Of a stretch of 32,000 nucleotides of DNA, positions 7,628-32,000 are shown piece after piece. Made by a program: the position numbers and the translations under genes. Origin of the DNA: Kineococcus radiotolerans SRS30216 = ATCC BAA-149 (lineage in GTDB: Bacteria; Actinomycetota; Actinomycetes; Actinomycetales; Kineococcaceae); NCBI RefSeq assembly GCF_000017305.1, contig NC_009664.2:4560001-4592000 (forward strand), read 5' to 3'. The notes beneath the pieces were generated by a model. The model had not been told where the DNA came from. It ran no database searches and was given only the letters and a program-made list of their open reading frames with translations. Position 1 is the stretch's first letter. Each line of letters starts with the position of its first letter.

Positions 7628-7713
7628 CGCCCTGACGGATCCATGTCCCCTTCCGCCACCTGTAGTGCCCTAACGGCAGCAGAGCGCAACCACTGGCCTG
7701 CGCCGGTTGGACG

Positions 7714-17216: not shown

Positions 17217-18220
17217 AGGCGAGTGTCGGAGTGGTTGGCGGGTCACAGCAGAACGTCACCTCCTCGGGCGGCGTCTGCCTTCACCGACCGACGAGGGTGT
17301 CAGCAGCGAATGATGAGGAAGCATGCTGCACGACAGGTGCCGGGTGTCTGCGATGGGTGGTGGAGGCCGCGGCCTCAGTCCCGGGCTTCAGACCAGGGCT
17401 GAGGATGGGGGTGTAGCGCCTGGTGCGTGATGGTGTGGACCTCACTGACCCGGTCGTAGCTGACCCATCCGCCGATTGGTCCGCTGTGCTCGAAGTCTCC
17501 AAACTGCACCCTGCTGCTTTCCTCGCGGGCTCTCAGTACTCCTGCGGAGTCCCGCCCCTGGCCGTGCCTCTGATATACCCCGGCCGTCGCCGAGACGCAC
17601 GACGTGCTTGATCTCAGACTTCGGCGTCTGCTGATGCAGCAGCTCGTTGCTGGCCCTGAGGACGGTGTCCAGGGCCGACATCGGCGTGACCGCGATGCGT
17701 CGGAGCCGACGTCCACCCAGATCGCGGGATGACCGCGCGCTCCGCTGTGTGCTCGTGCTCTACTGGAGTCCTTCGTGCCCTGGACCCGGCGCGGTGGCAG
17801 CACCACCTGATGACTCGGTGGGGAGAAGTCTGCGTGGGGGTCTCTCGCCTCGGGAGCCGGCCGTGCCCGCCCCGCCAGGTCTGCGGGTGGCAATGCGTCG
17901 AGCCGACGGCGCGGCGGGAGGCCTGACCTCGATCGAACAGCCGGAGGGGTCAGGACTTCGCGTGCGCGGCTAGCTGCTGCTGACTCGGCCGCCACTGACT
18001 CGACCGCCACTGACTTGGCCCGTAGCCGACGCTGGGCCTCGGTGCTGGCGGGGCACTACCCTGTAGTCACTGCGCCACCGTGGCGTCGCCTCCACCGCCC
18101 AGGCGGAGGGCGCCACGGCCTGGGTTGGACCCACAGCTCTCGCAGGTTCCGTCACCGCTTCTGCAGCGGCGGGAACCGTTGCGGGGCGTCGAGCTCCGCG
18201 CCCCGTGTGGAGGAGCCCCC

Positions 18221-19000: not shown

Positions 19001-19086
19001 ATCGGCTCGACACCCGCAAGGGGGACTGGCTCGTCACCATGAGGGTGACGTCGCTATGAGCGTGACGTCACCGGTTGCTGTCGGTC

Positions 19087-19117
19087 GCGCCCGGATTGCG
19101 GGATGGCCGGTAGGTCG
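19087..19117 (+). repeat. Interspersed element copy (diverged core GGGATGGCCGGTAGGTCG)
   Basis: Shares an identical 18-nt 5' extension, GCGCCCGGATTGCGGGAT, with the copy at 26463. Ends 11 nt before the stop of the convergent gene at 19128. Two related ATGAG(G/C)GTGACGTC boxes sit at 19039-19053 and 19056-19070. Confidence 0.6.
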
Positions 19118-19127
19118 AGCAGCCGTC

Positions 19128-19463
19128 TCAGGGACCGCGACGCTGCCGCAGGGGCCGGTCATCACCATCGTGGTGGTAGCTGATCTCGACGTCGGTCAGC
19201 TCGTTCTGCAGCCGGTAGGCCAAGCGCAGCCCCTCGTCCTGCCAGGCCCGCTCCTGCTCCTCGTCGGACCAGCGGTAGTCACTCCACCCGAGGGCGTTGA
19301 ACCGCTCGTTCCGCGCCCGCAACTGCTCGACGAGCTCAGCGCTGACGCCGAGGCTGGTCAGCTCGGCCGGGCCGACATGATCAGGGTCGCTGTCCCAGGC
19401 GGGGTCCTGCTCGCCCCACTCAGCCATGACCCGCAGGGCGACGGGGCGGTAGGGCTCCTCCAC
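19128..19463 (-). CDS. Hypothetical acidic Trp-rich 111-aa protein
   Basis: Clean ORF with protein-like composition (MEEPYRPVALRVMAEWGEQDPAWDSDPDHVGPAEL...). The overlapping plus-strand ORF is low-complexity. No family recognised. Confidence 0.55.
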   Translation of the reverse strand: MEEPYRPVALRVMAEWGEQDPAWDSDPDHVGPAELTSLGVSAELVEQLRARNERFNALGWSDYRWSDEEQERAWQDEGLRLAYRLQNELTDVEISYHHDGDDRPLRQRRGP

Positions 19464-19798
19464 CGGATGAGCATGTCAGCCGGTGTCTGACCTGGGGGCA
19501 GGGCAGTGGGATCGCGGACACACCTCGTAGCGGCTCCGCTCGGCCGCTCGCTCATCGGCGTGAGCGTGTCCTCGGTAAGGCGCTCGGGCGGCGTCGTGGG
19601 TGTGAGAGGCCCGTGTCTGCCTCACGGTCCGCATCATGACGTGAAACGGGAAGGTGTCGGCGATCTCACAAGATCGCTGAGGGGTTGTGAGGAAGGGTTC
19701 ACGCGACCGGTCGGCGTCAGCAACGCCGACGTGACCGGGCGCGGTGAGCGTTGACCTCACCATCGTGGACCCGGCGGGTCCCATTCCCTGGAGGCGTC

Positions 19799-20989
19799 GT
19801 GGCCGGTCTCTTCACCCCCTTGACCATCAAGGACGTGACTCTGCGCAACCGCATCGGCATGTCACCCATGACGATGTACCGCTCCGTAGACGGGGCAATG
19901 AACGACTTCCACCTCATGTACCTGGGCGCCCGCGCCGCCGGCGGGTTCGGGCTGGTCTTCCCCGAGCAGGTCGCCATCGCCCCCGAAGGCCGCACCACCG
20001 TGCACTGCGCCGGCATCTACGACGACGCGCAGGTCGAGGGTCACGCCCGCGTCACCGCCATGATCAAGGACATGGGGGCGGTGGCCGGGATCCAGCTCGG
20101 TCACACCGGCCGCAACGGCAGCGAGGTCCCGCCCTGGGAGGGCGGCCTGCAACTGCCCCCCGAGCACCCTGACGGCTGGCAGGTCAGCGGCCCCTCGAAC
20201 ATCCCCTACGGCTGCGGCAAGCGTCCCTACCCGGTGCACGCGCTGAGCGTGGCGGAGATCAAAACCCTGCACCGGCAGTACGCCGACGCCGCCCGACGCG
20301 CACTGGACGCCGGTTACGAGTGGCTGGAGATGCACTTCGCCCACGGCTACCTCGCCTCGGAGTTCTTCTCCCCCCTGGCCAACCAGCGCACCGACGAGTA
20401 CGGCGGCAGTCTGGAGAACCGCGCCCGGTTCCTCCTCGAGGCGCTGGACGCGGTCCGGGAGGTGTGGCCGGAGCGGCTGCCGCTGACGATGCGGCTGGGG
20501 TCGGATGACTTCCACCCCGAGGGGATCACCTTTGAGGAGTCGATCACGGCGATCGGCTGGATGAAGGAGCATGGCCTGGACCTGGCCGACATCAGCCAGG
20601 GCGGCAACACCGACGATATGGTGAACCCGATCTGGAACGACCCCAGCGCGTGGGTGGCGCGCGCTGCGCGACTGAAGGATCGGGTGGACATCCCCGTCAC
20701 CACGAGCTGGAACCTCGGCATCCCCGCCAACGCCGACGCGGCCATCCGTTCCGGGGACGTCGACCTGGTCCTGCTGGGCCGTCCGGCGCTGGCGAACCCG
20801 CACTGGCCGGTGTGGGCGGCCCGGGAACTGGGCACTACCGAACCCTTCGACCTGGTTCCGAAGGACTGGGGGTTCTGGCTGCAGAACTTCCGCGGGCACG
20901 GCCCCAGCATCGGCTGGCCCGAGCCCGAGGTCAGCCGCCCGGCAGTGGTGACCCTGCCCCAGCAGGGAGCGCACCTGCAGAACGTCTAG
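19799..20989 (+). CDS. NADH:flavin oxidoreductase, Old Yellow Enzyme family
   Basis: LFTPLTIKDVTLRNRIGMSPMTMY, HCAGIYDD, GIQLGHTGRNGS, WLEMHFAHGYLASEFFSPLANQRTDEYGGSLENRARF. GTG 19799 follows GGAGG (19790-19794). The ORF is open from 19751. Confidence 0.9.
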   Translation: MAGLFTPLTIKDVTLRNRIGMSPMTMYRSVDGAMNDFHLMYLGARAAGGFGLVFPEQVAIAPEGRTTVHCAGIYDDAQVEGHARVTAMIKDMGAVAGIQLGHTGRNGSEVPPWEGGLQLPPEHPDGWQVSGPSNIPYGCGKRPYPVHALSVAEIKTLHRQYADAARRALDAGYEWLEMHFAHGYLASEFFSPLANQRTDEYGGSLENRARFLLEALDAVREVWPERLPLTMRLGSDDFHPEGITFEESITAIGWMKEHGLDLADISQGGNTDDMVNPIWNDPSAWVARAARLKDRVDIPVTTSWNLGIPANADAAIRSGDVDLVLLGRPALANPHWPVWAARELGTTEPFDLVPKDWGFWLQNFRGHGPSIGWPEPEVSRPAVVTLPQQGAHLQNV

Positions 20990-21048
20990 AAGAGCGCCGC
21001 ACCGGCTGCGGGCTGCACCAGGTCCTCCGGTGGGGTAGTCGCGACACC

Positions 21049-21079
21049 GGGGTGTCACCCGGGAACCGGGTGACACCCC
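21049..21079. terminator. Perfect 14-bp-stem, 3-nt-loop hairpin between convergent genes (probable bidirectional intrinsic terminator, no U-tract)
   Basis: GGGGTGTCACCCGG gaa CCGGGTGACACCCC. It lies 60 nt after the OYE stop and 58 nt after the hydrolase stop. Confidence 0.6.
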
Positions 21080-21136
21080 GCTCATCAAGCTGTGTCCGTC
21101 GTCGGCGCTCAGTTGCGGAACGTCGGCAGGTGGTTC

Positions 21137-21973
21137 TCAGGAGGCGAGGAAGTCCAGCAGGACGCGGTTGAACTCCTCGGCATGGCTGACGTTGATGCCG
21201 TGCGGCCCGCCGGCGATGACGTGCAGGCGGCTGCCGGGGATCGCGGCGTGGGTGCGCGCACCGGAGCCTGCAAAGGGCACGGTCCCGTCGCCGTCGCCGT
21301 GGACGACCAGCACAGGCACGTCGACCTTGGGGAGGTCGTCGCGGAAGTCGGTGGTCCCGAAGGACGCCATCGCCTTCAGCGCGGCCTTCTTGTCGGCCTG
21401 CTTCGTCAGAGCGAGGGCCTCCTGGCGCTGGGCCTCGGTGACCTTCAGGACCCCGTCGACGGAGAAGAAGTCGGTGACGAAGCCGTCGTAGAAGGAGTCC
21501 TCGTCAGCGGTGAGGGCGGCCTCCATCTGCGCCGCCTGCTCCTTGGTCAGCGGGCCGTCGGGGTTGTCCTTCCCCTTCGCCATGTAGGGCGGGACCGCGG
21601 CGGCGAAGACGACGCTGCGCAGGCGCTCGTCGCTGTACTTGGTGAAGTAGCGCGCGACCTCCCCTCCGCCCATGGAGAAGCCGACGAGGGTGACGTCGGT
21701 GAGGTCGAGGGCCTCGAGCAGGGCGTGCAGGTCCTCGGTGAGGGTGTCGTAGTCGTAGCCGATGCGGGTCTTGTCGCTGCGCCCGAAGCCGCGGCGGTCG
21801 TAGGTGATGACCCGGTAGCCCGCGGCGGTGAGGGCGGGGACCTGCTCGGACCAGGAGGCACCCGACAGGGGCCAGCCGTGGATGAGGACGACGGGGCGTC
21901 CGGGGCCGCCGGTGTCGTCGACGTGCAGGTCGGTGTCCTTGAACAGGCCGTGGTGGGCGGTGATCTCGGTCAT
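21137..21973 (-). CDS. Alpha/beta hydrolase of the cofactor-free haloperoxidase/arylesterase type
   Basis: PVVLIHGWPLSGASWSEQVPAL..GYRVITYDRRGFGRSD, nucleophile elbow GFSMGGGEV, and PVLVVHGDGDGTVPF...GGPHG. Confidence 0.85.
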   Translation of the reverse strand: MTEITAHHGLFKDTDLHVDDTGGPGRPVVLIHGWPLSGASWSEQVPALTAAGYRVITYDRRGFGRSDKTRIGYDYDTLTEDLHALLEALDLTDVTLVGFSMGGGEVARYFTKYSDERLRSVVFAAAVPPYMAKGKDNPDGPLTKEQAAQMEAALTADEDSFYDGFVTDFFSVDGVLKVTEAQRQEALALTKQADKKAALKAMASFGTTDFRDDLPKVDVPVLVVHGDGDGTVPFAGSGARTHAAIPGSRLHVIAGGPHGINVSHAEEFNRVLLDFLAS

Positions 21974-22285
21974 GACTCCCCTTCGGAGCGGACGCGGCGG
22001 TGGTCTGGTGGGACCTGCACTGGCCTGGGTCGAGCGCCGGTTGGACGCTCAACCACTGTGGCTACCCTGGACGGGTGGGGGTTAGGCCGCCTCCTGAGGG
22101 CTGCCAAGGGGTGCCGGTGTTGCGCCGTTCGAGGTCGCAGAGGACTTGGCGTGGTCCTCACTTCGCACGCAGTCACCATCGGCGGTGTCGATCGAAGGTT
22201 GGCGGACCGCGTGCTGTGCAAGGCGGCGCATCAAGAAGTGCTGTCCCCAGGTCGCAGTGAGGGCATTGCCTCGCTGTGGGCGAGG

Positions 22286-22841
22286 TCAGGAGGCTGGATC
22301 GTCCTTGACGAGCGGAATCGCGCTGGCGGCGATCTGGTCCAGGTTGGGCAGATCCAGCGTCGTGTGGGTGGGGGCCAGCGCAGGCCCCCAGGACACCTCG
22401 AAGCCCAGCTTGCCGTCGGTGGGCATCCCGAAGATCCGCACGGCGCACGACAGGCGCCGGACGCGACCGTCGTCCCAGACGTCGTTGCGCTCACCCAGGG
22501 ACAGTCGCTGCGGCATGTGATCGACGAAGGCGTGCACGAGGGGGTCGTTGGCCGGGCCTGGCCAGTGCTCCCACAAAGCTCCCTGTACGGCCGCCTCGGC
22601 ATCGCTGCGGGGTGGGAGGACCTGCGGGATGAAGGCGACGTCGGCGCGGGCCACCAGCCAGGCGGTCGGGGTAGGCGAACAGGCAGCGCAGGCCGATGGC
22701 GATGCCGGGGACCTTGGCCAGGACCACCGGCCCGTGAGCGATGGCTCCCAGACTGCGCCAGGTCTGATCGGAGTCTTCGATCTCCCACGGCCTCCATGGC
22801 CGCTGCCACGGCTCCCAGGACGGGGCGGATGCATCCGTCAT
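22286..22841 (-). pseudogene. Frameshifted paralog of the upstream 188-aa gene (or a sequencing error)
   Basis: The N-terminal part is in the frame of ORF 22491-22841 (…SLGAIAHGPVVLAKVPGIAIGLRCLFAYPDRL). The rest is in the frame of ORF 22286-22834 (LVARADVAFIPQ…). The switch is at CTGGCTGG (plus strand 22654-22661). Removing one base restores DRLLVARA, which aligns with DGLLLSIE in the paralog. Confidence 0.6.
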
Positions 22842-23404
22842 GCCAGCCTCACCACCCGCTCGTAGAGGTCGTCCAGGTTCTCCAGGGCCAGGACCGTCGT
22901 GGTCATCGGAGCACCCAGCTCCGGCCAGCCGGCCTCAAGAGGAAGGCGCGCGTCCTCCGGTAGCTTCGGCCACCACAGGTCCAGGTCTCGCAGGTATGCC
23001 GGCGAGCCCGGGTCCTCACCCGAGGCACCGCGGGCGACGGGTCCGCCACTGCTGTAGTGGTGTTCCAGTCGATGCCACAGCTGCCCGTCCGGGGTGAGGC
23101 CGGCGGCCGAGGCCGGGACGCTGAAGTGGGGGTCGCTGCGGGGAAGCCGAGGAGCACGCTGCCGGCCGCTGCGACCGCTGGGGTGGAAGTCAGACTCGTA
23201 GGCGTCTTGAGCGACCTGGCCGATGGCCTTGATCTCGATGGAGAGCAGCAGGCCGTCGAGGTAGGCGAAGGCGCAGCGCAGGCCGAGGCCGATCCCTGGC
23301 CCCTGGCTGAGGACGCACGGGCCGTGGGCGAGGGCTCCGAGTCCCTCCACGAAGGAGAAGGAGATGCCGCTGGTCACGGGGCCAGACTGCCGCACGTGAG
23401 GCAT
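22838..23404 (-). CDS. Hypothetical 188-aa protein, intact member of the tandem paralog pair
   Basis: Shares GLGALAHGPCVLSQGPGIGLGLRCAFAYLDGL with the downstream copy. Its stop overlaps the downstream ATG (ATGA at 22838-22841). Confidence 0.6.
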   Translation of the reverse strand: MPHVRQSGPVTSGISFSFVEGLGALAHGPCVLSQGPGIGLGLRCAFAYLDGLLLSIEIKAIGQVAQDAYESDFHPSGRSGRQRAPRLPRSDPHFSVPASAAGLTPDGQLWHRLEHHYSSGGPVARGASGEDPGSPAYLRDLDLWWPKLPEDARLPLEAGWPELGAPMTTTVLALENLDDLYERVVRLA

Positions 23405-23477
23405 CCCGTCACCAGCGGCGAGCAGCGGTCATGATGCTCGATAACCGCGTGCCTCTCGTCAGACGCATGCTCTTCGT

Positions 23478-23494
23478 GGGATGACCGCAAGCTG
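23478..23494 (+). repeat. Interspersed element copy (GGGATGACCGcaAGcTg)
   Basis: The first 10 nt are identical to the core. Lies in the divergent gap 23405-23561. Confidence 0.5.
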
Positions 23495-23561
23495 CCACGA
23501 CAACCAGGGGCTGCGTCCGCAGACGCGAGACACAGCGCTTCGAGGTCCATAGCCCTCGTCC

Positions 23562-23714
23562 ATGGACTTCGTGGTGTGCTCCTACGACCAAGAGCGAGTC
23601 AAGAACGTCGACGGGCTCCTCGGACCCGGAGAGCGCCCGCTGGTGGACTGCCCGCGGTGCGGCAGGCGATACGTGTTCACGGAAGACGGCGAGCTGGTGA
23701 GCTACAGCTCCTGA
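23562..23714 (+). CDS. Possible 50-aa protein with a CxxC knuckle (below the ORF-track length cutoff)
   Basis: MDFVVCSYDQERVKNVDGLLGPGERPLVDCPRCGRRYVFTEDGELVSYSS. High third-position GC. I found no strong RBS. Confidence 0.35.
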   Translation: MDFVVCSYDQERVKNVDGLLGPGERPLVDCPRCGRRYVFTEDGELVSYSS

Positions 23715-23803
23715 CCGGGTGGCTACCTTGAGTGCGCTTTCGATGAGCGCGTGTCTCGTCGCGCGCGGGCGCTCCAGGCCGGCCGCGAACGTGCACTGAG
23801 CAC

Positions 23804-23820
23804 GGGATGACCGTGATGTC
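23804..23820 (+). repeat. Interspersed element copy (GGGATGACCGTGATGTC)
   Basis: Exact 13-mer GGGATGACCGTGA, 90 nt after the stop of the small ORF. It overlaps the annotated ATG of the SRPBCC ORF. Confidence 0.8.
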
Positions 23821-24706
23821 TCGACGCGCCCGGGATGGGTGCTGGGAGGTTCGCGGTGTTGACCGTCCTCGACGACGGCGCTCCGCTACCGTCGGGGACG
23901 TGGCGCGCCCGCTGTACGTCGAGACGCTGGTGCGCTGCGAGGCGGACCGGTTGTGGCACCTGACCCAGGCCCCGGACCTGCACCCGCGCTGGGACCTGCG
24001 CTTCTCCTCCATCCAGCCCACCGTCCGCGACGCCGACGGGCACCAGCACTTCACCTACGCCCTCGTCCTGCCCCACCCCCGCGCGGCGCTGCTGACGGTC
24101 ACGGGCACGGGGGTGTCGGTGGGGCAGCGGCGCGATGCCGCGGGCCGCGGGACGTCGGCCTTGCGGTTCCGCCCCCACGGCGTCTTGTCCCCACTGGGTG
24201 AGGGGGCGGGGTACTGGCGCTACGTCCCCACCGAGCACGGGGTCCGGTTCCTCACCGGCTACGACTACGTCCCCGGCTGGGGTGGGCTGGGCCGGGTGCT
24301 GGACCCGTTCCTGGTGCGCCCGCTGGTGGGGTGGGCCACCGCGTGGAGCTTTGACCGCCTGCGTCTGTGGGCGGAGACCGGCTTGGACCCGGCCCTCGCC
24401 CGCAACCGCGCCCTGCGCGATGCGGCCGTCCGGTCAGTGGGCCTGGGCCTGAGTCTGGGGGCTCTCGCCGCGGCCGGTGGGCGGCGCACCCGGCGGCACG
24501 GACGGCGGCACGGACAGCGACGGAGCCTGGTGGGTGCCGCGGTGGCCGTGGCCGCTGCGGCGCTGCTCTGGCCGGTAGGCAGCGGCACCCCTTCGGCGCG
24601 CCGCTGCCTGCGTCGCGCCCCCGACCGCCGGTCCGCCACCGCACCGACCAGCCTGGACACCGTTCCCCTCCCGATGGGGTCAGCCGCGCCGGGTCGAGAC
24701 GCGTGA
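23807..24706 (+). CDS. SRPBCC (polyketide cyclase/START-like) domain protein with a C-terminal membrane/Arg-rich region
   Basis: RPLYVETLVRCEADRLWHLTQAPDLHPRWDLRF...GYWRYVPTEHGVRFLTGYDYVPGWGGLG. Its stop overlaps the DUF4166 start (GTGA at 24703-24706). The true start may be GTG 23900. Confidence 0.7.
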   Translation: MTVMSRRARDGCWEVRGVDRPRRRRSATVGDVARPLYVETLVRCEADRLWHLTQAPDLHPRWDLRFSSIQPTVRDADGHQHFTYALVLPHPRAALLTVTGTGVSVGQRRDAAGRGTSALRFRPHGVLSPLGEGAGYWRYVPTEHGVRFLTGYDYVPGWGGLGRVLDPFLVRPLVGWATAWSFDRLRLWAETGLDPALARNRALRDAAVRSVGLGLSLGALAAAGGRRTRRHGRRHGQRRSLVGAAVAVAAAALLWPVGSGTPSARRCLRRAPDRRSATAPTSLDTVPLPMGSAAPGRDA

Positions 24707-25407
24707 GCGCGCGCGAGCCGGACTTCACCGGCAGCGTGGTCCTCGCCGCCCTAGGCGCCGACGCCGCCCGCCTGCACCCGATGCTGCAGCGGCGCTTCGG
24801 GGTCTCCACCGCCGCGGGGTACTCCTGCGTGGGGCGCGGGGTCATGGACCGCCTCTGGCACGGCCCGGCGTGGACGCTGCCGTTCCTGCACCTGGGAGCG
24901 TGGCGCAACATCCTGGTTCCCGACGCCGGGAGTGATGTCCCTTTCAGCGTGGAGAATTACGCCTACGTCGACTCCTTCGGTCGTGAGACGGTCACGGTGG
25001 TCCGGACCTTCGAGATCGCCCCGGGCCGGCGGCGCCGCTTCGACGCGACGCTGGTCGCCGACGGGCCGGGTCGGGTCCTGGACTACCTCGGAACCCATCA
25101 GCACCTGGCGGTGGACCTGCGTCCGTCGGTGCTGGCGGATGGGCGGTTGCGCATCGTCTCCAGCGCGCAGCGCTTCTACGAGGGCCGCGTGGGGTTCCGG
25201 TTCCCGATGCTGTTCTCCGGGACGGCGGAGCTGATCGAGGGTTACGACGAGGGTCGGGGGAGGTACACGATCGAGGTGGCGGTCTCCAACGAGCGGTTCG
25301 GGCCGCTGGCGGGCTATTCGGGCAGCTTTACTTGTGAGTTCCCGCAGGTCGTGGGTGATGCGGTCCCGCCGGCGGTGCGGCCGTTGCGGGAGGAACAGCG
25401 CCGTTGA
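24703..25407 (+). CDS. DUF4166 domain protein
   Basis: LGADAARLHPMLQRRFGVS...GRGVMDRLWHG...FSVENYAYVDSFGRETVTVVRTF...YLGTHQHLAVDL...RFYEGRVGFRFP pattern. Translationally coupled to the SRPBCC gene. Confidence 0.7.
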   Translation: MSAREPDFTGSVVLAALGADAARLHPMLQRRFGVSTAAGYSCVGRGVMDRLWHGPAWTLPFLHLGAWRNILVPDAGSDVPFSVENYAYVDSFGRETVTVVRTFEIAPGRRRRFDATLVADGPGRVLDYLGTHQHLAVDLRPSVLADGRLRIVSSAQRFYEGRVGFRFPMLFSGTAELIEGYDEGRGRYTIEVAVSNERFGPLAGYSGSFTCEFPQVVGDAVPPAVRPLREEQRR

Positions 25408-25476
25408 ACCGTGGTGGGCGATGCGGTCCCGCCGGCGGTGCGGCCGTTGCGGGAGGAACAGCGCCGTTGAACCGTC
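25351..25476. repeat. 63-bp tandem duplication (61/63 identical) covering the last 18 codons and the stop codon of the DUF4166 gene
   Basis: Unit 1 is 25351-25413 and unit 2 is 25414-25476. Both read VGDAVPPAVRPLREEQRR-TGA-TV in the gene's frame. Confidence 0.95.
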
Positions 25477-25487
25477 GCGCGGATAGC

Positions 25488-25505
25488 GGGATGAGCGTGA
25501 GGTCC
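25488..25505 (+). repeat. Interspersed element copy (GGGATGAGCGTGAGGTCC)
   Basis: One mismatch in the 13-mer. Lies 11 nt after the 63-bp duplication. Confidence 0.75.
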
Positions 25506-25733
25506 AGCATCGCCTTGTCTCCGCGAGCACCATGGGGCCCCTTGAGGCGGACAGCACGAGACGACGAAGGGCTGGCGGTAGGCGAGATGGGTCGAGGACG
25601 GCAGCAAGAACATGGCACGGAGGACGGCGGTGAAGGCGCCGGGGTACGCGTAGGGGGCGGCGACGGCGACGGCAGTGATGATCACGATGACGACGCCGGA
25701 GCCACCGCCTGAGTCCGAGCGCGCTACGTCAGC

Positions 25734-25751
25734 GGGATGATCGTGAGGTCG
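25734..25751 (+). repeat. Interspersed element copy (GGGATGATCGTGAGGTCG)
   Basis: One mismatch in the 13-mer. Lies in the gene-free gap 25477-25858. Confidence 0.75.
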
Positions 25752-25835
25752 TCAGGTCAGCCCTTGGGCTTTCCGTTTACGCACTCGACCTCGAGACCGG
25801 CGTCGTCCTCGCGCCTGACACCGCGACCTGCTGAA

Positions 25836-25857
25836 CGGATGAGCGTCGCCGAGGCCC
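25836..25857 (+). repeat. Interspersed element copy with a 4-nt insertion (CGGATGAGCGT[CGCC]GAGGCCC)
   Basis: Matches the 25488 copy apart from the CGCC insertion. Ends 2 nt from the stop codon of the minus-strand gene 25859-26386. Confidence 0.5.
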
Positions 25858-25858
25858 C

Positions 25859-26386
25859 CTAGGGGCGCTCCTGCCCGGTCAATTGCTCCAACCGGTGCTG
25901 AAGACGCGCCGGCTCCACCCAGGCGAGGACGATGAAGAAGGAGAAGAAGGCCGCCGCCAGCAGCCACCACCGCGACCACACCAGCGCCAATCCGAGGTAG
26001 ACGACGGTGAAGACCCCGAAGGTCAGGAGTTGACGCACCCGCCCGCGGCGCGCTTCTTGCTGTCGTCGTTGCACGAGGTGGACCGCCACTTGCTGGATGA
26101 CGGGGTCGGTCGGGACGGGACCGCGTCGGGCCGCGCGGGCACCGGCTCGTTGCTGCTCAGGGCTGGCCTGCGCCGGGAGACCGGCGAGTAGACGCTGACG
26201 CATCCGGGCTGAGGCAGGCCCCATCAAGGCGCCGAAGACGACGCCGGCGATCAGCGCAAAGGGCAGCGTCGAGGTGAAGGTCTCATGGCCGGTGATGGCT
26301 GAGCCGGCCGCGAAGATCAGGGTGAAGAGGAGGCCCTGCACGATGCCCAGGACCCACCACGGTGCTTGCTGCCAGCGCCACGACAT
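25859..26386 (-). CDS. Four-TM membrane protein, function unknown
   Basis: 175-aa ORF with hydrophobic segments WWVLGIVQGLLFTLIFAAGSAI, LPFALIAGVVFGALMG, LLTFGVFTVVYLGLALVW and WWLLAAAFFSFFIVLAWV. Confidence 0.7.
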   Translation of the reverse strand: MSWRWQQAPWWVLGIVQGLLFTLIFAAGSAITGHETFTSTLPFALIAGVVFGALMGPASARMRQRLLAGLPAQASPEQQRAGARAARRGPVPTDPVIQQVAVHLVQRRQQEARRGRVRQLLTFGVFTVVYLGLALVWSRWWLLAAAFFSFFIVLAWVEPARLQHRLEQLTGQERP

Positions 26387-26462
26387 CCCTGCAGCTTGGA
26401 CTGCGTCTGCCAGGCCGGCGCCTGCAGGTGTGCGGTGTCATCCGGCTGGCGGTAGGAATGCA

Positions 26463-26529
26463 GCGCCCGGATTGCGGGATCACCGTGAGGTCCTGGTCTT
26501 GAGCTGGGGTGGGCCAGGCCGTCACCCTG
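26463..26529 (+). repeat. Interspersed element: B-type core GGGATCACCGTGAGGTCC with a diverged inverted partner (palindromic unit)
   Basis: Core at 26476-26493. CCTGG (26492-26496) pairs with CCAGG (26514-26518), and GGG (26476-26478) with CCC (26525-26527). The right arm GCCGTCACCCTG (26518-26529) is an identical 12-mer to 27668-27679. Confidence 0.7.
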
Positions 26530-26576
26530 CAGGAGGGGCGCGGCCCTCGTGGACGTCGGCATGAGATGGAGGCGCG

Positions 26577-26765
26577 ATGCGCTACCTGGCTCTGGGTGCT
26601 GTCGGCGGGATGGGAGCAGGCGCTCTTCTCACCCTTGTCTTCATGTGGAGCTCCGGCAGCACCTACGAGTGGGTGGACTCAGTGGTGGGCACGTCGCTGA
26701 TGGGCCTGCTGCCGGGGGTGGCTGTTGGGGCAATCGTCATGGTGAGGAAGGAAGACCGGCAGTGA
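26577..26765 (+). CDS. Small two-TM membrane protein (62 aa)
   Basis: MRYLALGAVGGMGAGALLTLVFMW...LMGLLPGVAVGAIVMV. GGAGG (26568-26572) lies 4 nt upstream of the ATG. Confidence 0.6.
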   Translation: MRYLALGAVGGMGAGALLTLVFMWSSGSTYEWVDSVVGTSLMGLLPGVAVGAIVMVRKEDRQ

Positions 26766-27088
26766 GGCTGCACGCCCCGGTGATGCTGTCGACCACCGCA
26801 GCGGGGGCGACTAGCTAACGCGCCGGCTGACGACCGTCGATCACCCGCTCGTCGGCAGATCCGGTAAGTCGGCGGGGTTACCTTCGTTCTGTCGACGATC
26901 GGTGATCAGGACCCAGCCTGGGCGCTCATGGAGCTGAGCGGCGTAGCCCAGCAACAGGTGATGCTCGCCAGCTACCCCTGGCCCGACCTGCGTTGCAGAC
27001 GGACAGCGAGCGGTCGATGTCTCATCGATGAGTTCGGGCGGCGGTGACAGTCCCATCGTCGACACGCACCATCGACGAGGAGGACACC

Positions 27089-27538
27089 ATGGCGACCCGT
27101 CCCATCGAGAAGGAGATCGACGTCGACGCCCCACGCGAGCGGGTGTGGGAGGTCCTGACCGGCGAGGCCACGTACCGGCGGTGGAGCGCGGAGTTCGCGG
27201 AGGGCTCCTACGCCGAGACCGACTGGCAGCAGGGCAGCAGCGTCCGGTTCCTCGGCCCCGACGGGACTGGGTTGGTCGGCCGGGTCCTCGTCAGCCGGCG
27301 CCCGGAGCTCCTGGACATCGAGTACACCGGCGTCGTGGGTGGTGGTCGCGACGACACCGAGAGCGAGCAGGCGCGCTTGTGGTCGGGGACGCACGAGATG
27401 TACCGCCTGGCCGAGGCGGGCGGCGGGACGCTCCTGGCGATCTCCGCTCCGATGGAGGAGGCCTACTACGACGAGATGGTGGGGGCGTGGGACCGTGCGC
27501 TGGCCGTGGTCAAGGAGCTGAGTCGAGGAGCTGGCTGA
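27089..27538 (+). CDS. SRPBCC/AHSA1 (Aha1-like START fold) family protein
   Basis: MATRPIEKEIDVDAPRERVWEVLTGEATYRRWSAEFAEGSYAETDWQQGSSVRFLGPDG. GAGGAGG (27077-27083) lies 5 nt upstream of the ATG. Confidence 0.8.
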   Translation: MATRPIEKEIDVDAPRERVWEVLTGEATYRRWSAEFAEGSYAETDWQQGSSVRFLGPDGTGLVGRVLVSRRPELLDIEYTGVVGGGRDDTESEQARLWSGTHEMYRLAEAGGGTLLAISAPMEEAYYDEMVGAWDRALAVVKELSRGAG

Positions 27539-27564
27539 GGTTTACCCGACCACGCACCATCCGC

Positions 27565-27632
27565 AGGATGACCGTGCGGTGGTGCGGTGGTGCGGTGGTG
27601 CGGTGGTGCGGTGGTGCGGTGGTGATCCAGTG
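27565..27632 (+). repeat. Interspersed element: core AGGATGACCGTG and inverted arm GGTGATCCAG, with the 8-bp array between the arms
   Basis: Exact 11-mer GGATGACCGTG, 27 nt after the SRPBCC stop. The minus strand reads CTGGATCACC at 27632-27623. Confidence 0.7.
27574..27624. repeat. 8-bp tandem array (GTGCGGTG) x6 plus a partial copy, non-coding
   Basis: Six identical units at 27574-27621, then GTG. The array starts inside the element copy at 27565 and ends at GGTGATCC, the inverted arm of the same element. Confidence 0.97.
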
Positions 27633-27767
27633 CCTGTCGAGGCGTCTCCTCGCCGCGAGTCGCTGGTGCCGTCACCCTGGTGCGCGGTCCGCACGGGGCT
27701 GGCATGGGGAAGCGGAGGTGCGGTGAGCGGGAGGTCGACGAGAGGACCTGCGTGGGCGCGCAGGTCC

Positions 27768-27995
27768 ATGATCGCCAGCGCGGTCCTCGCCGCTCTTGGT
27801 CTGGTCAGCGCGGTGTTGCTCTTCCTGCAGCCGTGGGCGTCCTGCCCAGGAGTCGACGACAGCTCGGCCGGCTGCCCGGTGGAGGGTGCACAGGTCGTCG
27901 TTCAGCAGATCGCCGTGCTGGTCCTGGTGGTCGGGGTGCTGGGTCTGGTGGCGTCTTCTCTGGCTCGTGCTGGGTGGCGCTCGATCCGTGGCTGA
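27768..27995 (+). CDS. Small two-TM membrane protein with an extracytoplasmic Cys pair (75 aa; 90 aa if GTG 27723 is used)
   Basis: MIASAVLAALGLVSAVLLFLQPWASCPGVDDSSAGCP...IAVLVLVVGVLGLVASSL. The alternative GTG 27723 follows GGAGG (27714-27718). Confidence 0.55.
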   Translation: MIASAVLAALGLVSAVLLFLQPWASCPGVDDSSAGCPVEGAQVVVQQIAVLVLVVGVLGLVASSLARAGWRSIRG

Positions 27996-28051
27996 GCTGC
28001 GCCCGGGTTCGCTGCTTCGTGGACTGCGGGGTTGGTGACGTTCTGGCCAGC

Positions 28052-28095
28052 GGGATGACCGTGACGTCGGGATCGCGGTCGGATGAGTGTCCGGG
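28052..28095 (+). repeat. Interspersed element copy (GGGATGACCGTGACGTCG) followed by two degenerate direct copies
   Basis: Exact 13-mer, 57 nt after the upstream stop. Followed by GGGATCGCGGTCG (28069-28081) and GGATGAGTGTCC (28081-28092). Confidence 0.8.
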
Positions 28096-28168
28096 GTGGT
28101 CCGTCAGGCAATCGGCACCACGACGAACGGGGGATGGAACCGGGTGCCACGGTGGAGAGGGTCGATGC

Positions 28169-28393
28169 ATGACGCAGCGACGCACTCAGCAGCAGACGGT
28201 GGTCTGGGCGGAGAAGCTTCAGACGTGGATCGCCCTGGCGGTGATGTTCCTGGCGATCTCGTCGCCGCAGTGGGTCGTGGCTCTGAGCGGAGAAAAGGCC
28301 TTGGCCTACGTCTCGGCGACGGCCTTCACCTTCGTGGCGGCCCTGTTCGCTGCGTACGCCTGCCGGCGCGCCCGGCGCCGCTCTCAGCGCTGA
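28169..28393 (+). CDS. Small two-TM membrane protein (74 aa)
   Basis: MTQRRTQQQTVVWAEKLQTWIALAVMFLAISSPQWVVAL...AYVSATAFTFVAALFAAYACRRARRR. GGAGAGG lies 8 nt upstream of the ATG. Confidence 0.6.
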   Translation: MTQRRTQQQTVVWAEKLQTWIALAVMFLAISSPQWVVALSGEKALAYVSATAFTFVAALFAAYACRRARRRSQR

Positions 28394-28414
28394 GTGCATC
28401 GGCACGCGGACGGC

Positions 28415-28431
28415 GGGATGACCGTGAAGCC
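28415..28431 (+). repeat. Interspersed element copy (GGGATGACCGTGAAGCC)
   Basis: Exact 13-mer, in the convergent gap: 22 nt after stop 28393 and 90 nt before the MerR stop. Confidence 0.8.
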
Positions 28432-28520
28432 GATAGCGGTCGCCTGCAGAGCGGGGCTGGCCGCTGGAGCAGTGCGTTCAGCGCAGCGAGCAGGAGACAC
28501 CGTGCCTGGTTCGACGCAGG

Positions 28521-29435
28521 TCACTCCCGGGCGGCGATCTCCGCGGCTAGTTCCATGCACCGCAGGCGGGCCGGGGAGAAGTCGTAAGGCATCTTCGCCA
28601 CGGCTTCGAGCACGTTCATGGCACCTCGTCCCCGGCCGGTGCTCAGGTCGTCCTCGTCCTCACCGTCCTCACCGTCGTCAGCGGCAGCAGGGTGCAAGGC
28701 GTCCCAGGAGTCGAAGAGCGCTTCGTCGCTGCGCGCCAGGCCGGAGTCCTCGATGACGGCGAGCAGCACCAGCTCGAAGGCGTGCCGTTCGGCGGCCACC
28801 TGAACCACGCGAGGGTCCTCGACGTCGACCGTGTCGTCGAGCGCCTCCTCGGCGCCATCGACGCGGTCGGACTCCTCCCGCAGGTGCGGGTGGGTGGCCA
28901 GGGCGATGAAACGGCCGGCTTGAACGGCCGCACCCAGCGGGCCAAAGATCCGCTCGGTAACCAGCAGGGTGTCCAGGTCGCCCTGGCGCAAGGAGCCCTC
29001 GGGCACATCCTCCAGTCGGCTAGCGACGAAGTCGGAGAGCAGCCCCGTCCTGCTGCCCCGGGTGCGCATGCGTTGCACGGCGCTGCGCTGCCGCTGCAGC
29101 TCCGCCTCCCGGGCAGCGATGGTGCTCTCCAGCCGCTCCAGGACGCCGGCGACGTCCTGGTCGCTGCCGGCACCGGCACCGGCGGGAGCACCGCCGGTGT
29201 CGGCGAAGGCGTCACGGATGTCGTCTAGGGCGATCCCGGCCTCGGCCATCCTGCGGATCCACAGCAGCCGGATCACCTCGTCGTAGCCGTAGCGGCGGCG
29301 GCCGTCGCTGCCCCGTTCGGGCTCGGGCAGCAGGCCGATCTGGTGGTAGTGCCGGATCGCGCGCGGTGTGGTGCCCGCGAACGACGCCGCGTCACCGATC
29401 TTGACCCGACGCGGCGGGGTGAAAGACGAGTGCAC
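28521..29435 (-). CDS. MerR-family transcriptional regulator with a long C-terminal effector-type domain
   Basis: KIGDAASFAGTTPRAIRHYHQIGLLPEPERGSDGRRRYGYDEVIRLLWIRRMAEAGIALDDI is a MerR HTH. GTG 29435 is preceded by GAGGAAGG. The ORF is open to 29543. Confidence 0.8.
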   Translation of the reverse strand: MHSSFTPPRRVKIGDAASFAGTTPRAIRHYHQIGLLPEPERGSDGRRRYGYDEVIRLLWIRRMAEAGIALDDIRDAFADTGGAPAGAGAGSDQDVAGVLERLESTIAAREAELQRQRSAVQRMRTRGSRTGLLSDFVASRLEDVPEGSLRQGDLDTLLVTERIFGPLGAAVQAGRFIALATHPHLREESDRVDGAEEALDDTVDVEDPRVVQVAAERHAFELVLLAVIEDSGLARSDEALFDSWDALHPAAADDGEDGEDEDDLSTGRGRGAMNVLEAVAKMPYDFSPARLRCMELAAEIAARE

Positions 29436-29538
29436 GAGCGGGGCCTTCCTCTGGGGGGCGGGACGTGGTCCACCCGACCACGTGACGCTGCGGAAGGTGC
29501 AAGTTCCAGCACTGCGCCCGGCACTCGGCCCCGCACGC

Positions 29539-29560
29539 GTCACGGTGATGATCGTCCCGG
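29539..29560 (-). repeat. Possible inverted, insertion-bearing element copy (minus strand GGGA[CGATCA]TCACCGTGAC)
   Basis: Once the 6 inserted nt are removed it matches the B-type core GGGATCACCGTGA. Lies about 105-125 nt upstream of the MerR start. Confidence 0.35.
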
Positions 29561-29581
29561 CGCATCGCTCGTGAGGCTAGG

Positions 29582-29623
29582 CGGCGCTGGCCCGGCTGGA
29601 TCCGGCGCTGGCCCGGCTGGATC
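29582..29623. repeat. Perfect 21-bp tandem duplication (CGGCGCTGGCCCGGCTGGATC x2) in the divergent MerR/membrane-gene intergenic region
   Basis: The units at 29582-29602 and 29603-29623 are identical. A partial GGATCGG follows. Confidence 0.95.
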
Positions 29624-29649
29624 GGATCGGTCAAGGGCTCGCGCACCGC

Positions 29650-29696
29650 GGGATGACCGTGACGTCGTTTTCGCCGCGGACCTGGTCGGTGATCCC
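29650..29696 (+). repeat. Interspersed element: complete palindromic unit (plus-strand GGGATGACCGTGACGTCG and minus-strand GGGATCACCGACCAGGTC)
   Basis: Exact 13-mer on the plus strand. The outer arms GGGATGACCG / CGGTGATCCC pair at 9 of 10 positions. Lies 13 nt upstream of the membrane-gene GTG at 29709. Confidence 0.85.
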
Positions 29697-29708
29697 TACG
29701 GTGGTCTC

Positions 29709-30335
29709 GTGCGAAAGGTCCCCCGACTGCTCAGCTGCCTGCTCGCCGGCGCTGCCTTCGGGGTGCTGGACTCACTGGTCAACCACGGCTCCTTCGTCGC
29801 TGACCCCGCCACCATCACGGCAGGTCAGCAGGTGGCGCGCTTCTCCAGCTACCTGCTGAACGCGGGGTGGGCGTGGGCTGCGCTGCCGGTGTTGGCCGGC
29901 TGGTGGGCCACGACGCGGCTGATGGGCGCGGTCGCAGGGTGGGTGAGCGTGTCCGCGGCGGTGGTGGCCTACTACGTCAGCGACAGCCTGGTGCGCGACG
30001 AGCCGTTCTCCTACTACACCGCAGAGATGGTCCTGTGGCTGGCGGCGTGTCTGCTGCTGTGCGCGCCGCTGGGACTGAGCGGGGCGTGGTCTCGACGCCG
30101 GGACCGGTGGGGGCTGGTGGCCGGGCTCGTCGTGCCTCTCGGGGCGGCGGTGCAGATGGCGGTCCTACCACCGGGCCTGGACGGGGTGATCGTGTACCCG
30201 CAGGCGGTGTGGGCGCGGTGGACGGTGTGGGTGGTGGCGGCGGCGGCGGCGGCGGTGAGTGCGGCGCTGCTGCTGCGGCGCTGGAGACGCTTTCGAGTGC
30301 GCGGCGCTGCGGCTGACGTCGGTGCCCTGTGGTGA
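29709..30335 (+). CDS. Multi-pass membrane protein (about 6 TM), divergent from the MerR gene
   Basis: VRKVPRLLSCLLAGAAFGVLDSL..., WAWAALPVLAGWWA, GAVAGWVSVSAAVVAYYV, MVLWLAACLLLCAPLGL, WGLVAGLVVPLGAAV, WTVWVVAAAAAAVSAALLL. The GTG 29709 start is inferred. Confidence 0.6.
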   Translation: MRKVPRLLSCLLAGAAFGVLDSLVNHGSFVADPATITAGQQVARFSSYLLNAGWAWAALPVLAGWWATTRLMGAVAGWVSVSAAVVAYYVSDSLVRDEPFSYYTAEMVLWLAACLLLCAPLGLSGAWSRRRDRWGLVAGLVVPLGAAVQMAVLPPGLDGVIVYPQAVWARWTVWVVAAAAAAVSAALLLRRWRRFRVRGAAADVGALW

Positions 30336-30435
30336 CGGGCTGGGTGCTTGCCATGGCCGGGGTGTTCGGTCCTGGTGGTGCGGCTTACCAGTGGCGGAGG
30401 TCGGTGCCGGCTCAGCGGTCGGTTCCGCGGCCGGC

Positions 30436-30789
30436 TCAGCGGCGCCCCAGCACGCTGAGCAGCACCATTGGTACGCACAGCACGGTTTGTGGAACAGCGA
30501 CCAGCAGCACGCTGACGCGTACGGCGGCGCGTTGCCGGGCGGCGATGGCGGCGGTCACCGCCGTCGGGGTGCACGCGGCTGCCGCGGCCATCAACACCAG
30601 CACGGCAACGGGGACGGCGCCAGGGTCGAAGACCGGCCACATCACGGCCGAGAAGAAGACCGGTACGGCGATTACCAGCAGGCCACCGCCGATGCCGGCA
30701 GCCAACAACGAGGCCTTGGCATTGTCGGCCAGGTTCAGGTGGTGATCGCTCACCTGCTCAGGATGCCGCCGCCACGGGGACTCGCGCAT
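30436..30789 (-). CDS. Three-TM membrane protein (117 aa from ATG 30789)
   Basis: ASLLAAGIGGGLLVIAVPVFFSAVMW, AVPVAVLVLMAAAAA, VSVLLVAVPQTVLCVPMVLLSVL. The ORF is open to 30846. Confidence 0.5.
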   Translation of the reverse strand: MRESPWRRHPEQVSDHHLNLADNAKASLLAAGIGGGLLVIAVPVFFSAVMWPVFDPGAVPVAVLVLMAAAAACTPTAVTAAIAARQRAAVRVSVLLVAVPQTVLCVPMVLLSVLGRR

Positions 30790-30867
30790 CACCTTCGGTG
30801 GTCTCACTCGGTGTGGACATCGCCACGAGCGCGAAGTCGCAGCCAATTGTAGTCACGCCCGTATCGC

Positions 30868-30910
30868 GGGATGACCGTGAGGTTGGGCTGAGGTCGGGGG
30901 CGGTGAGGCC
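30868..30910 (+). repeat. Interspersed element copy (GGGATGACCGTGAGGTT) with a weak inverted arm CGGTGAGGCC
   Basis: Exact 13-mer, between two co-directional minus-strand genes. It contains three TGAGG(T/C) boxes at spacings of 12 and 14 nt. Confidence 0.8.
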
Positions 30911-30930
30911 TGCATGTTGATGGGACGCGC

Positions 30931-31770
30931 TCAGGCGAGCGACAACGTCTGCACCGCCTGGGAGCCGTCTCGGTAGGTGACGTCGACGTCCACGCCGTGG
31001 ACGGCGTCGAGGAGTTCATCGCCGGGGAACCACAAGGCGAACCGTCCCGCGTTGACAGTGGCGGTCACGTCCCCGTTCGAGGCGCTGCGGTAGACCACCC
31101 CCGTGACGTCATCTCCGGCGAAGCCAGCAGCCACCGACAGCTCTCCGGCGTCGAGGCTGCCGGTGCCCAGATCGGTCGCGCTCAGCTCCCGAGGCCCGGG
31201 AACCGGCACGTCAGGGACACCGATGGAGCCGAACACGTCGCCGGCGAAAAGTGCGCGCGAGTCGTCGGTGATGCACAGCGCCGAGAAGCCGTCTTCTCCG
31301 GTCAGCATCACGGTGGACCATTCCCCTCGGCGCTCGGCGACTGCGACCGCGGCGCCGGCCAGTTGGGGGTAGCGGTCGGCGAAGCCGTCGCTGCTCTGCT
31401 GCTCACGGCAACTGCTCGCCGCGGCGGCGCTGTCGGCGGCGCTGAGGCCAGCCGGGGCCGCGGTCCAGCTGGCGTAGGCACGGTCCCCGCCGAAGGGGGA
31501 GGGCAGGACGAAGACACCGGCGGTGGCTGCAGCTACCAGGCCTGCCGCTAGGACGATGCGCCGGCCCGTGCGCGGGCCCGTGCGCTGCCCGGTGCGCCGA
31601 TCGGGGACGGCGAGGGAACCGGGCAGGTCGCTGGTCAGGATGCGGTCCAGGTCGGCGCGGGCGCGGGCTGCGCCCCTGGAGTCGTCGTCGAGGTGGTCGA
31701 TGGGCGGAGCGGCGTCCAGCGTGCGCAGGGCCGTCTCGATGTCATGGGTCTTGGCGTCGGTGCGGGTCAC
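30931..31770 (-). CDS. Single-TM protein co-translated with the ECF sigma factor (putative anti-sigma or sigma-associated protein)
   Basis: GTG start overlaps the sigma gene's stop (GTGA at 31767-31770). Cytoplasmic N-terminus, TM segment IVLAAGLVAAATAGVFVL, and an extracytoplasmic C-terminal domain. Confidence 0.55.
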   Translation of the reverse strand: MTRTDAKTHDIETALRTLDAAPPIDHLDDDSRGAARARADLDRILTSDLPGSLAVPDRRTGQRTGPRTGRRIVLAAGLVAAATAGVFVLPSPFGGDRAYASWTAAPAGLSAADSAAAASSCREQQSSDGFADRYPQLAGAAVAVAERRGEWSTVMLTGEDGFSALCITDDSRALFAGDVFGSIGVPDVPVPGPRELSATDLGTGSLDAGELSVAAGFAGDDVTGVVYRSASNGDVTATVNAGRFALWFPGDELLDAVHGVDVDVTYRDGSQAVQTLSLA

Positions 31771-32000
31771 GGGATGCTCCTGAAGGCGGGGTCGGCGGAC
31801 GGTCGCCGACTGGTGAGCGGGGGGTGGTCCAGGTGCAGGCGCAGAGCGCGCCGGGCTCGGCTCAGCCGTAGGCGGAAGGCCACCGCGGAGATGCCCAGCA
31901 CGCTCGCGGCGCGGGAGGAGTCCAGACCGTCGAAGACGACGAGGCTGAGAGCTTCCTGGTGGACCGCCGACAGCCGTTGCCAGGCGCGGGTCAGGTCGAC
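31767..32000 (-). CDS. ECF-type sigma-70 family sigma factor, C-terminal region 4 only (5' end outside window)
   Basis: The minus frame from the window edge reads VDLTRAWQRLSAVHQEALSLVVFDGLDSSRAASVLGISAVAFRLRLSRARRAL, a region 4.2 HTH. Confidence 0.7.
   Translation of the reverse strand, partial: VDLTRAWQRLSAVHQEALSLVVFDGLDSSRAASVLGISAVAFRLRLSRARRALRLHLDHPPLTSRRPSADPAFRSIP

Follow-up and report, generated by a model that had tools for sequence, protein, structure and literature searches.

Integrons are the textbook device for stockpiling and reshuffling genes, and the orientation of their cassette arrays is non-random relative to replication. Recombination sites of other kinds are also known: pdif sites are plasmid-borne 11-6-11 XerC/XerD sites in alternating orientation, and the sfx sites of the shufflon, on which Rci acts, are asymmetric with a conserved core that contains the crossover. 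Actinobacteria supply most antibiotics and include many stress-tolerant soil organisms; to our knowledge, integrons have not been reported in this phylum (Actinomycetota). Here, we describe a repeat that occupies intergenic gaps in a stretch of 32,000 nt from the chromosome of Kineococcus radiotolerans SRS30216 (NC_009664.2, positions 4,560,001–4,592,000; hereafter the window, with positions counted from its first letter). The copies of this repeat are probably site-specific recombination sites of about 30 bp at the junctions of mobile gene cassettes. As a broader and more tentative reading, they may belong to an undescribed, integron-independent form of cassette capture in Actinomycetota, in which a dedicated Xer-like tyrosine recombinase would act on asymmetric double-stranded sites of about 30 bp with the core GCGG(G/C)ATG. 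The cassettes would be self-expressed and would form several replication-polarised islands per chromosome, most expanded in Kineococcus and sparser in Cellulomonas, Motilibacter, Jatrophihabitans and Spirillospora.

The arrangement resembles an integron, but with a different site and probably a different recombinase. As in the sedentary chromosomal integrons (e.g. the Vibrio superintegron), long chromosomal arrays consist of small, mostly one-gene cassettes of unknown function, and a conserved, lineage-specific site lies at each junction in one orientation. Cassettes are shared and reordered between species, the cargo includes toxin–antitoxin and acetyltransferase genes, a simple Xer-related tyrosine recombinase is encoded nearby, and array orientation is non-random with respect to replication. 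Unlike the folded attC sites of 55–140 nt, the Kineococcus sites measure about 30 bp, are asymmetric and lack hairpin potential; the recombinase does not pass the IntI models, and its gene is embedded in the array, antisense to the sites, within a multi-gene module that is conserved; the genes of the cassettes run in either direction, several islands occur per genome, and the host phylum is Actinomycetota. With the pdif (Xer) modules of Acinetobacter plasmids the locus shares short double-stranded sites (~28 bp in pdif), modules of one to few genes including toxin–antitoxin pairs, the recurrence of modules in different contexts and a Xer-type tyrosine recombinase as presumed catalyst, whereas in Kineococcus the sites are chromosomal, always direct and of unrelated sequence, and the candidate enzyme is a dedicated Xer-like paralogue. 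The shufflon offers a parallel in its asymmetric tyrosine-recombinase site, better conserved on one side and with the crossover in the conserved core; however, it inverts segments in the 3′ end of one gene on plasmids, whereas the Kineococcus sites are direct repeats around whole genes. Literature searches of open-access papers yielded nothing on the motif, on repeats or integrons of Kineococcus or on actinobacterial cassette arrays, in agreement with a preliminary description of the window, made from its letters alone, whose author knew of no described actinobacterial element with the core GGGATGACCGTGA.

In the window, the exact 13-mer GGGATGACCGTGA occurs five times, on the plus strand only (23804, 28052, 28415, 29650 and 30868), as the preliminary description had reported; 100 dinucleotide-preserving shuffles of the window contained no match (chance expectation 0). 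Allowing up to two mismatches gave 12 matches against 1.6 expected, and the 17-mer GGGATSANCGTGANGTC with at most one mismatch gave eight, again all on the plus strand and spanning 23.8–30.9 kb. The single-mismatch copies of the 13-mer at 25488, 25734 and 26476 and the weaker ones at 23478, 27565 and 19100 were recovered as previously listed, and the identical 18-nt extension GCGCCCGGATTGCGGGAT at 19087 and 26463 is indeed present. A position weight matrix for the complete site of about 30 nt, trained on 173 Kineococcus copies, found 12 sites between 17.7 and 30.9 kb, without exception on the plus strand; the copy formerly placed at 25836 falls below the matrix threshold. The earlier statement that 0–19 kb is free of strong copies does not hold, because a good copy lies at 17714–17743 and the island thus starts before 19 kb; from 1 to 17.7 kb, motif matches are at chance level only. 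Genes of the window were called by codon-position GC (GC3) and open reading frame translations, and all strong copies lie between called genes, as they had been said to lie outside credible coding regions. The count of ten occupied gaps among the 11 between 23405 and 30930 was too high by one: nine carry a copy, the empty ones being 26765–27089 and 30335–30436.

Searching beyond the window, as had been suggested, uncovered many further copies in Kineococcus. Using the 19-mer GCGGGATGACCGTGASGTY, we scanned one genome per species and sampled the matching loci as 8-kb blocks (L numbers below denote sampled loci). At least 54 blocks from Kineococcus species were among the matches listed, some of them carrying as many as four exact copies in 8 kb. 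Together with the window, 54 such blocks hold 251 copies at up to three mismatches, in clusters of 2–14 per 8 kb with a median spacing of 640 bp in the islands, while some 40 kb of core sequence sampled in two Kineococcus genomes contained none. When strand and genic location were tabulated, 158 of 174 copies (91%) proved to be intergenic, against a coding share of 73% of the DNA (p = 6e-70). Outside Kineococcus, most of the actinobacterial 19-mer matches listed (in Mycobacterium, Nocardia, Williamsia, Rhodococcus, Gordonia and a few metagenome-assembled genomes) fall in one conserved coding sequence and were set aside as irrelevant; the others were isolated singletons. The motif contains ATG and GTG, and a start-associated sequence or repeated phage promoter was also considered; a scan of viral sequences with a 14-mer gave single matches at chance level only, and the gene content is not phage-like.

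A sequence logo of the 173 copies defined the consensus cgCGCaC..aac-GC-GGGATGACCGTGA-n-GTC-g, an asymmetric unit of about 30 nt that reaches 12 nt further upstream than the 17-mer previously taken as the unit. Its core GCGGGATGACCG is invariant and its position 13 variable (G in 86, C in 49 and A in 35 copies), and conservation does not extend beyond the unit. The half-site ACCGYG is repeated at a spacing of 11 nt. Some Kineococcus copies form tandem arrays with a period of 26–29 nt, for example GCGCAC-CGCGGGATGACC-GTGCGC five times in L205. A 9-6-9 reading of these tandem units (GCGCACCGC / GGGATG / ACCGTGCGC) would match the layout of core sites for tyrosine recombinases, but the second arm is missing from ordinary junctions. 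Runs of 3–18 such “empty” sites were seen at L205:839–965 and L193:5918–5990 (26–29-nt period, Kineococcus) and at L248:14960–15560 (34-nt period, Motilibacter), the unit being a 12-nt core with perfect 6-bp inverted repeats on both sides.

The copies coincide with the limits of exchangeable modules. Homology between blocks of different species (BLAST) is patchy and is lost abruptly at the motif on either side of a module; of the points where inter-species homology ends, 27% are no more than 15 nt away from a motif, compared with 2.8% of random positions. Cassette DNA of the window matches Kineococcus genomes at 73–88% identity. Positions 28050–28396, comprising a motif and the gene for a 74-aa membrane protein, recur motif-to-motif in Kineococcus sp. 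DK019 among unrelated neighbours, and positions 29647–30868, with two convergent membrane-protein genes, recur in K. vitellinus, where the homology spans one motif to the next. Similarly, a 360-bp module occupies five loci in four Kineococcus genomes (two of them in DK001), each time between different neighbours, and cassette order is permuted: two cassettes that lie 1.4 kb apart in L129 are adjacent and in reversed order in L183. The GAF/ANTAR regulator gene near the left end of the island is itself a cassette. Its homologue in a metagenomic relative (L252:4803) has the same left arm, CGCCCGGATTGC, behind the gene and different DNA downstream, and upstream of it lie ordinary genes without the motif. 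The closest named relatives of a window protein are in Kineococcus species, with up to 80% identity. When the GAF/ANTAR protein was used as bait for orthologous loci, the named matches were paralogues in core contexts, which served as motif-free controls. A 246-bp module without a called gene (25476–25751) was found at 67–74% identity in three Kineococcus loci (L190, L193 and L241); it may encode a small protein or RNA.

To locate the point of exchange, site pairs sharing only the upstream cassette were compared with pairs sharing only the downstream cassette. Positions up to −3 co-vary with the upstream cassette and positions from +10 to +12 onwards with the downstream cassette. The left arm is thus linked to the upstream module and the right arm to the downstream module, which places the exchange point inside the invariant core. 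Homology edges at the motif and arms linked to the adjacent modules both speak for the cassette junction or recombination site, one of the three identities put forward in the preliminary description.

Regarding orientation, 249 of the 251 copies lie on the strand shared by their locus, and this strand bears no relation to transcription. The four classes of upstream and downstream gene orientation around the copies are nearly equal in size (38, 36, 34 and 28), and island genes run with the motif in 236 cases and against it in 229. Because orientation is independent of the flanking genes, a promoter, a 5′-untranslated-region element or a terminator is excluded as the general function, in keeping with the earlier argument against a simple promoter. 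A −10 element of an alternative sigma factor, or the binding site of a regulator shared by a stress regulon, is accordingly a very improbable identity, despite several features that invite it: GGGAT resembles the GGGTAT of SigB/SigF-type promoters, a plus-strand gene starts 60–120 nt past six of the nine strong window copies, the island encodes an extracytoplasmic function (ECF) sigma/anti-sigma pair as well as a MerR regulator, and the ACCGYG half-sites recur at 11-nt spacing. Around the 158 intergenic copies, however, downstream genes show no preference for the direction of the motif; copies also occupy convergent gaps (e.g. 28403 and 25476), and the logo shows no −35 signal. A GTn-rich “−35” seen by eye in the window disappeared in the 173-copy logo, and the SigB/SigF-like promoter was rejected for this reason and for the lack of relation to gene orientation. 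An operator, also among the earlier candidates, leaves the single-strand orientation, the 26–29-nt tandem arrays and the homology breakpoints unexplained; neither a strand lock over tens of kb nor tandem arrays of 5–18 copies would be expected of it.

The motif lies on the G-rich strand in 47 of 55 loci (p = 8e-8; motif masked, and also when coding DNA is considered). Site orientation therefore tracks the replication-associated GC skew, not transcription. In Kineococcus sp. DHX-1 (NZ_CP170445.1), the single complete genome among those sampled, islands at 2.16–2.20 Mb (L181, L197 and L188) and 4.70–4.73 Mb (L193 and L241), 2.5 Mb apart, both carry the motif on the plus strand, with positive GC skew in four of the five blocks and a value near zero in L241. 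If orientation follows replication, both islands lie on one replichore, which bears on the position of the origin. Such a polarity, uniform within loci and independent of gene orientation, would also suit a chromosome-architecture signal that is read one way relative to replication, for orienting a translocase, pausing a fork or priming, with the cassettes being incidental. Known signals of this type, such as KOPS and Chi, are ~8-mers that lie mostly inside genes and chromosome-wide. The Kineococcus unit, in contrast, is 30 nt long, 91% intergenic and missing from core regions, and an architecture signal explains neither why homology between species breaks exactly at the motif nor the tandem “empty” units. 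We regard it as improbable.

A further candidate is an extragenic repeat of the REP/BIME type, spread by a RAYT or another transposase, with the breakpoints being passive hotspots for illegitimate or short-homology recombination. Like REP/BIME elements and their RAYTs, the Kineococcus copies are short, abundant, intergenic and restricted to a lineage (here, the genus), at times occur in tandem arrays and are tied to rearrangements; tandem duplications adjoin several sites. IS200/IS605-type transposition proceeds via single-stranded DNA at the replication fork, and elements moving in this way could also produce the observed polarity relative to GC skew. Against this explanation, the family lacks the palindrome that the preliminary description had seen in its “two-arm” unit. 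Allowing one mismatch, an inverted core lies within 120 nt downstream of only four of 165 copies, compared with one of 165 in the upstream control. The inverted pair at 29650/29686 is real and stands as an exception in a family that as a whole has no partner. The 40 nt upstream fold like shuffled sequence (−12.2 vs −11.9 kcal/mol), and no more than 86 of 173 copies have G at the position that would close a small GACC/GGTC stem, indicating no selection. An attC-like hairpin was rejected family-wide on the same data. An RNA element was likewise dismissed: the Rfam search of the window returned no RNA family at gathering thresholds, and the closing pair of the GACC-GUGA-GGUC hairpin bears no sign of selection. 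Moreover, the copies keep to the islands and do not occupy intergenic DNA at large, and the two arms segregate cleanly with the neighbouring modules. We noticed no Y1 or RAYT gene in Pfam and PHROG screens of 150 island proteins (top 25 families each), which did not amount to an exhaustive search. Thus, we consider a REP/BIME-like repeat unlikely, though it is the strongest of the alternatives.

If the copies are recombination sites, they require an enzyme, and the most likely candidate, on circumstantial grounds, is a Xer-like tyrosine recombinase of 308–321 aa, the sole recombinase family met in the islands. Its gene was found in six Kineococcus loci (L181, L163, L219, L240, L245/L246 and, frameshifted, L174), whereas about 0.1 occurrences of a single-copy gene would be expected by chance in some 55 blocks of 8 kb. 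In all six it is antisense to the motif (two-sided p = 0.03). Sites lie on either side of the gene, which thus does not head the array; its surroundings in DHX-1 and DK001 form a conserved multi-gene module bounded by sites. The protein combines a Phage_integrase catalytic domain (PF00589, E = 4e-26) with a SAM-like N-terminal domain, and its sequence shows the catalytic residues R (GLRIFE), K (GKGHK), H-x-x-R (HMLRH), H (RHAD) and Y (MRY). It scores 119 bits with the XerC and 116 bits with the XerD profile, far under both cut-offs, and its best solved relative is XerD. At L181:3205–3250, the site by the 3′ end of the gene is degenerate (GGGCTGACCGTCAGGTG) and is directly followed by an inverted core-like sequence, CATGATCATCCCGAC, which was not seen at ordinary junctions.

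The family is widespread and unusually conserved across Actinobacteria (70–83% identity); among 72,556 plasmids, no homologue was found at E ≤ 1e-40. Relatives in Cellulomonas, Motilibacter, Jatrophihabitans, Spirillospora and one further genome lie among intergenic, mostly co-oriented repeats with the core CATGCCGC, to which the reverse complement of the Kineococcus core, CATCCCGC, is related. Read on the coding strand of the recombinase, the repeats of the other genera have the core (C)TCATGCCGC and the Kineococcus motif reads GGTCATCCCGC. In Motilibacter, they include a tandem array of 18 units of 34 nt. Outside Kineococcus, a site usually lies 50–120 nt upstream of the recombinase gene; a motif-like 19-mer 88 nt upstream of the Cellulomonas gene is suggestive, its matrix score of 15.9 not being significant alone. 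That enzyme and site core go together across genera is the strongest evidence for the putative link between them, and it is circumstantial. Toxin–antitoxin-like pairs lie directly downstream of the recombinase in Cellulomonas (PhdYeFM/ParE, L247:11055–11578) and Motilibacter (ribbon-helix-helix protein plus small open reading frame, L248:11028–11542), which recalls the toxin–antitoxin cassettes reported to stabilise chromosomal integrons.

A genuine, divergent integron, with an IntI-type integrase acting on atypical attC sites, would account for the small and diverse cassettes, their toxin–antitoxin and GNAT cargo, the one site per junction, the uniform orientation and the Xer-related recombinase nearby. 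A co-oriented array of exchangeable cassettes with one site per junction is what we observed; IntI, attC and an integrase or attI at the head of the array were not found. The recombinase reaches only 53.5 bits with the integron integrase model TIGR02249 (cut-off 265) and 25.5 bits with NF011946 (cut-off 435), the XerC/XerD models fit better, and the match to solved IntI4 is limited to residues 245–307. The sites have neither the imperfect hairpin of attC nor its GTT/AAC triplets, the equivalent triplet being GTG; cassette genes run with and against the site about equally often, and the recombinase gene lies inside the array. It is thus hardly probable that the islands are integrons in this sense.

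For cassette junctions served by the candidate recombinase, we infer the following chemistry. The enzyme would cut and rejoin DNA within the invariant core GCGGGATGACCG, which would leave the left arm (cgCGCaC..aac) on the upstream cassette and the right arm (TGA-nGTCg) on the downstream one. When two direct sites recombine, the cassette between them would be released as a circle carrying one reconstituted site (...GCGGGATGACCGTGA + nGTC...), and by the opposite reaction it would enter any other site, giving rise to shuffled, species-specific arrays. The asymmetric centre would set the directionality. Inverted sites on one replichore would lead to harmful inversions and be purged, which might be how orientation came to be locked to replication. 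Since genes face either way at random inside the cassettes, every cassette would have to carry a promoter of its own.

Several observations weigh against this proposal. No excised circle, empty site or strain-level insertion or deletion was observed, and a search of 438 kb of sampled sequence for a cassette present vs absent between shared neighbours found none. Counts and positions of the motif refer to the sampled blocks. The strong asymmetry of the site would be unusual in a simple core site of a tyrosine recombinase. As for the enzyme, variable islands gather mobile-element genes anyway, leaving the link circumstantial, and the recombinase family is not confined to Kineococcus. Upstream regions of the recombinase do not align across genera and contain no conserved attI-like site, and the arrays outside Kineococcus are sparser, with mixed orientation in Jatrophihabitans. 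The Kineococcus sequence right behind the recombinase stop codon, CACTCATCTGCCGATG, is a variant unlike the island motif.

The sites and cassettes of the window are compiled in Table 1. Window cargo, according to Pfam, comprises GAF/ANTAR, OYE reductase and hydrolase, Zn-ribbon, DUF4166, SRPBCC, MerR, small membrane and ECF sigma/anti-sigma proteins. Across the sampled islands, the 465 proteins are highly diverse, the largest family having five members, and include GNAT acetyltransferases, PIN, MazF and Doc toxins, TetR regulators, MFS transporters, sigma factors and SRPBCC proteins. Tandem duplications were seen at or inside three window sites (63 bp × 2 at 25351–25475, 8 bp × 6.4 at 27574–27624 and 21 bp × 2 at 29582–29623), the first of which copies the end of the DUF4166 gene; they could be scars of slippage or recombination. 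Furthermore, IS110-family (DEDD) transposase genes recur inside islands of Kineococcus and other genera (L129:148–1657, L218:6595–7998 and L240:3397–4894; also L247, L250 and L254), and the element in L129 stops about 20 nt short of the left arm of a site. This placement is reminiscent of those IS1111/IS110 elements whose targets are attC and REP sequences. In the motif-free part of the window, positions 3546–11982 are rich in c-di-GMP signalling genes, with four GGDEF and/or EAL proteins, some of which carry PAS, CBS or periplasmic-binding domains.

Table 1 Recombination-site candidates and cassette boundaries in the window (scores refer to the position weight matrix).
Feature	Position	Strand	Basis	Remarks
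Cassette island	17714–32000, continuing past the window end	+		about 12 modules of 0–5 genes each
Site CACCCAGATCGCGGGATGACCGCGCGCTCC	17714–17743	+	matrix, 26.6	leftmost window copy; 5′ boundary of GAF/ANTAR regulator cassette
Degenerate half-copies ATGAGGGTGACGTC and ATGAGCGTGACGTC	19029 and 19056			ahead of the site at 19088
Site CGCCCGGATTGCGGGATGGCCGGTAGGTCG	19088–19117	+	matrix	3′ boundary of GAF/ANTAR cassette
Weak site, core GGGATGACCGCAA	23466–23495	+	matrix, 12.6	
Site with exact 13-mer	23792–23821	+	matrix	
Site GGGATGAGCGTGAGGTC	25476–25505	+	matrix	left arm adjoins tandem duplication 63 bp × 2 (25351–25475)
Site GGGATGATCGTGAGGTC	25722–25751	+	matrix	paired with 25476 around the 246-bp module
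Site GGGATCACCGTGAGGTC	26464–26493	+	matrix	left arm CGCCCGGATTGC
Degenerate site AGGATGACCGTGCGGTG	27553–27582	+	matrix	right arm enters tandem repeat GTGCGGTG × 6.4 (27574–27624)
Site with exact 13-mer	28040–28069	+		5′ boundary of 360-bp cassette (74-aa membrane protein)
Site with exact 13-mer	28403–28432	+		3′ boundary of 74-aa cassette and 5′ boundary of MerR cassette (gene on − strand)
Best site CTCGCGCACCGCGGGATGACCGTGACGTCG	29638–29667	+	matrix, 42.4	5′ boundary of two-gene cassette (convergent membrane proteins)
Site with exact 13-mer	30856–30885	+		3′ boundary of two-gene cassette; followed by anti-sigma/ECF sigma pair on − strand

If the proposed system of cassette capture is real, the cassette-array architecture would have evolved more than once, in this case from Xer-type recombinases, and it would account for part of the hypervariable islands rich in orphan genes in these genomes. 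The compact 30-bp site and its recombinase would then be a possible pair of tools for genome engineering in high-GC bacteria. In addition, the Kineococcus islands would be a concrete case in which a replication-locked orientation of recombination sites can be tested.

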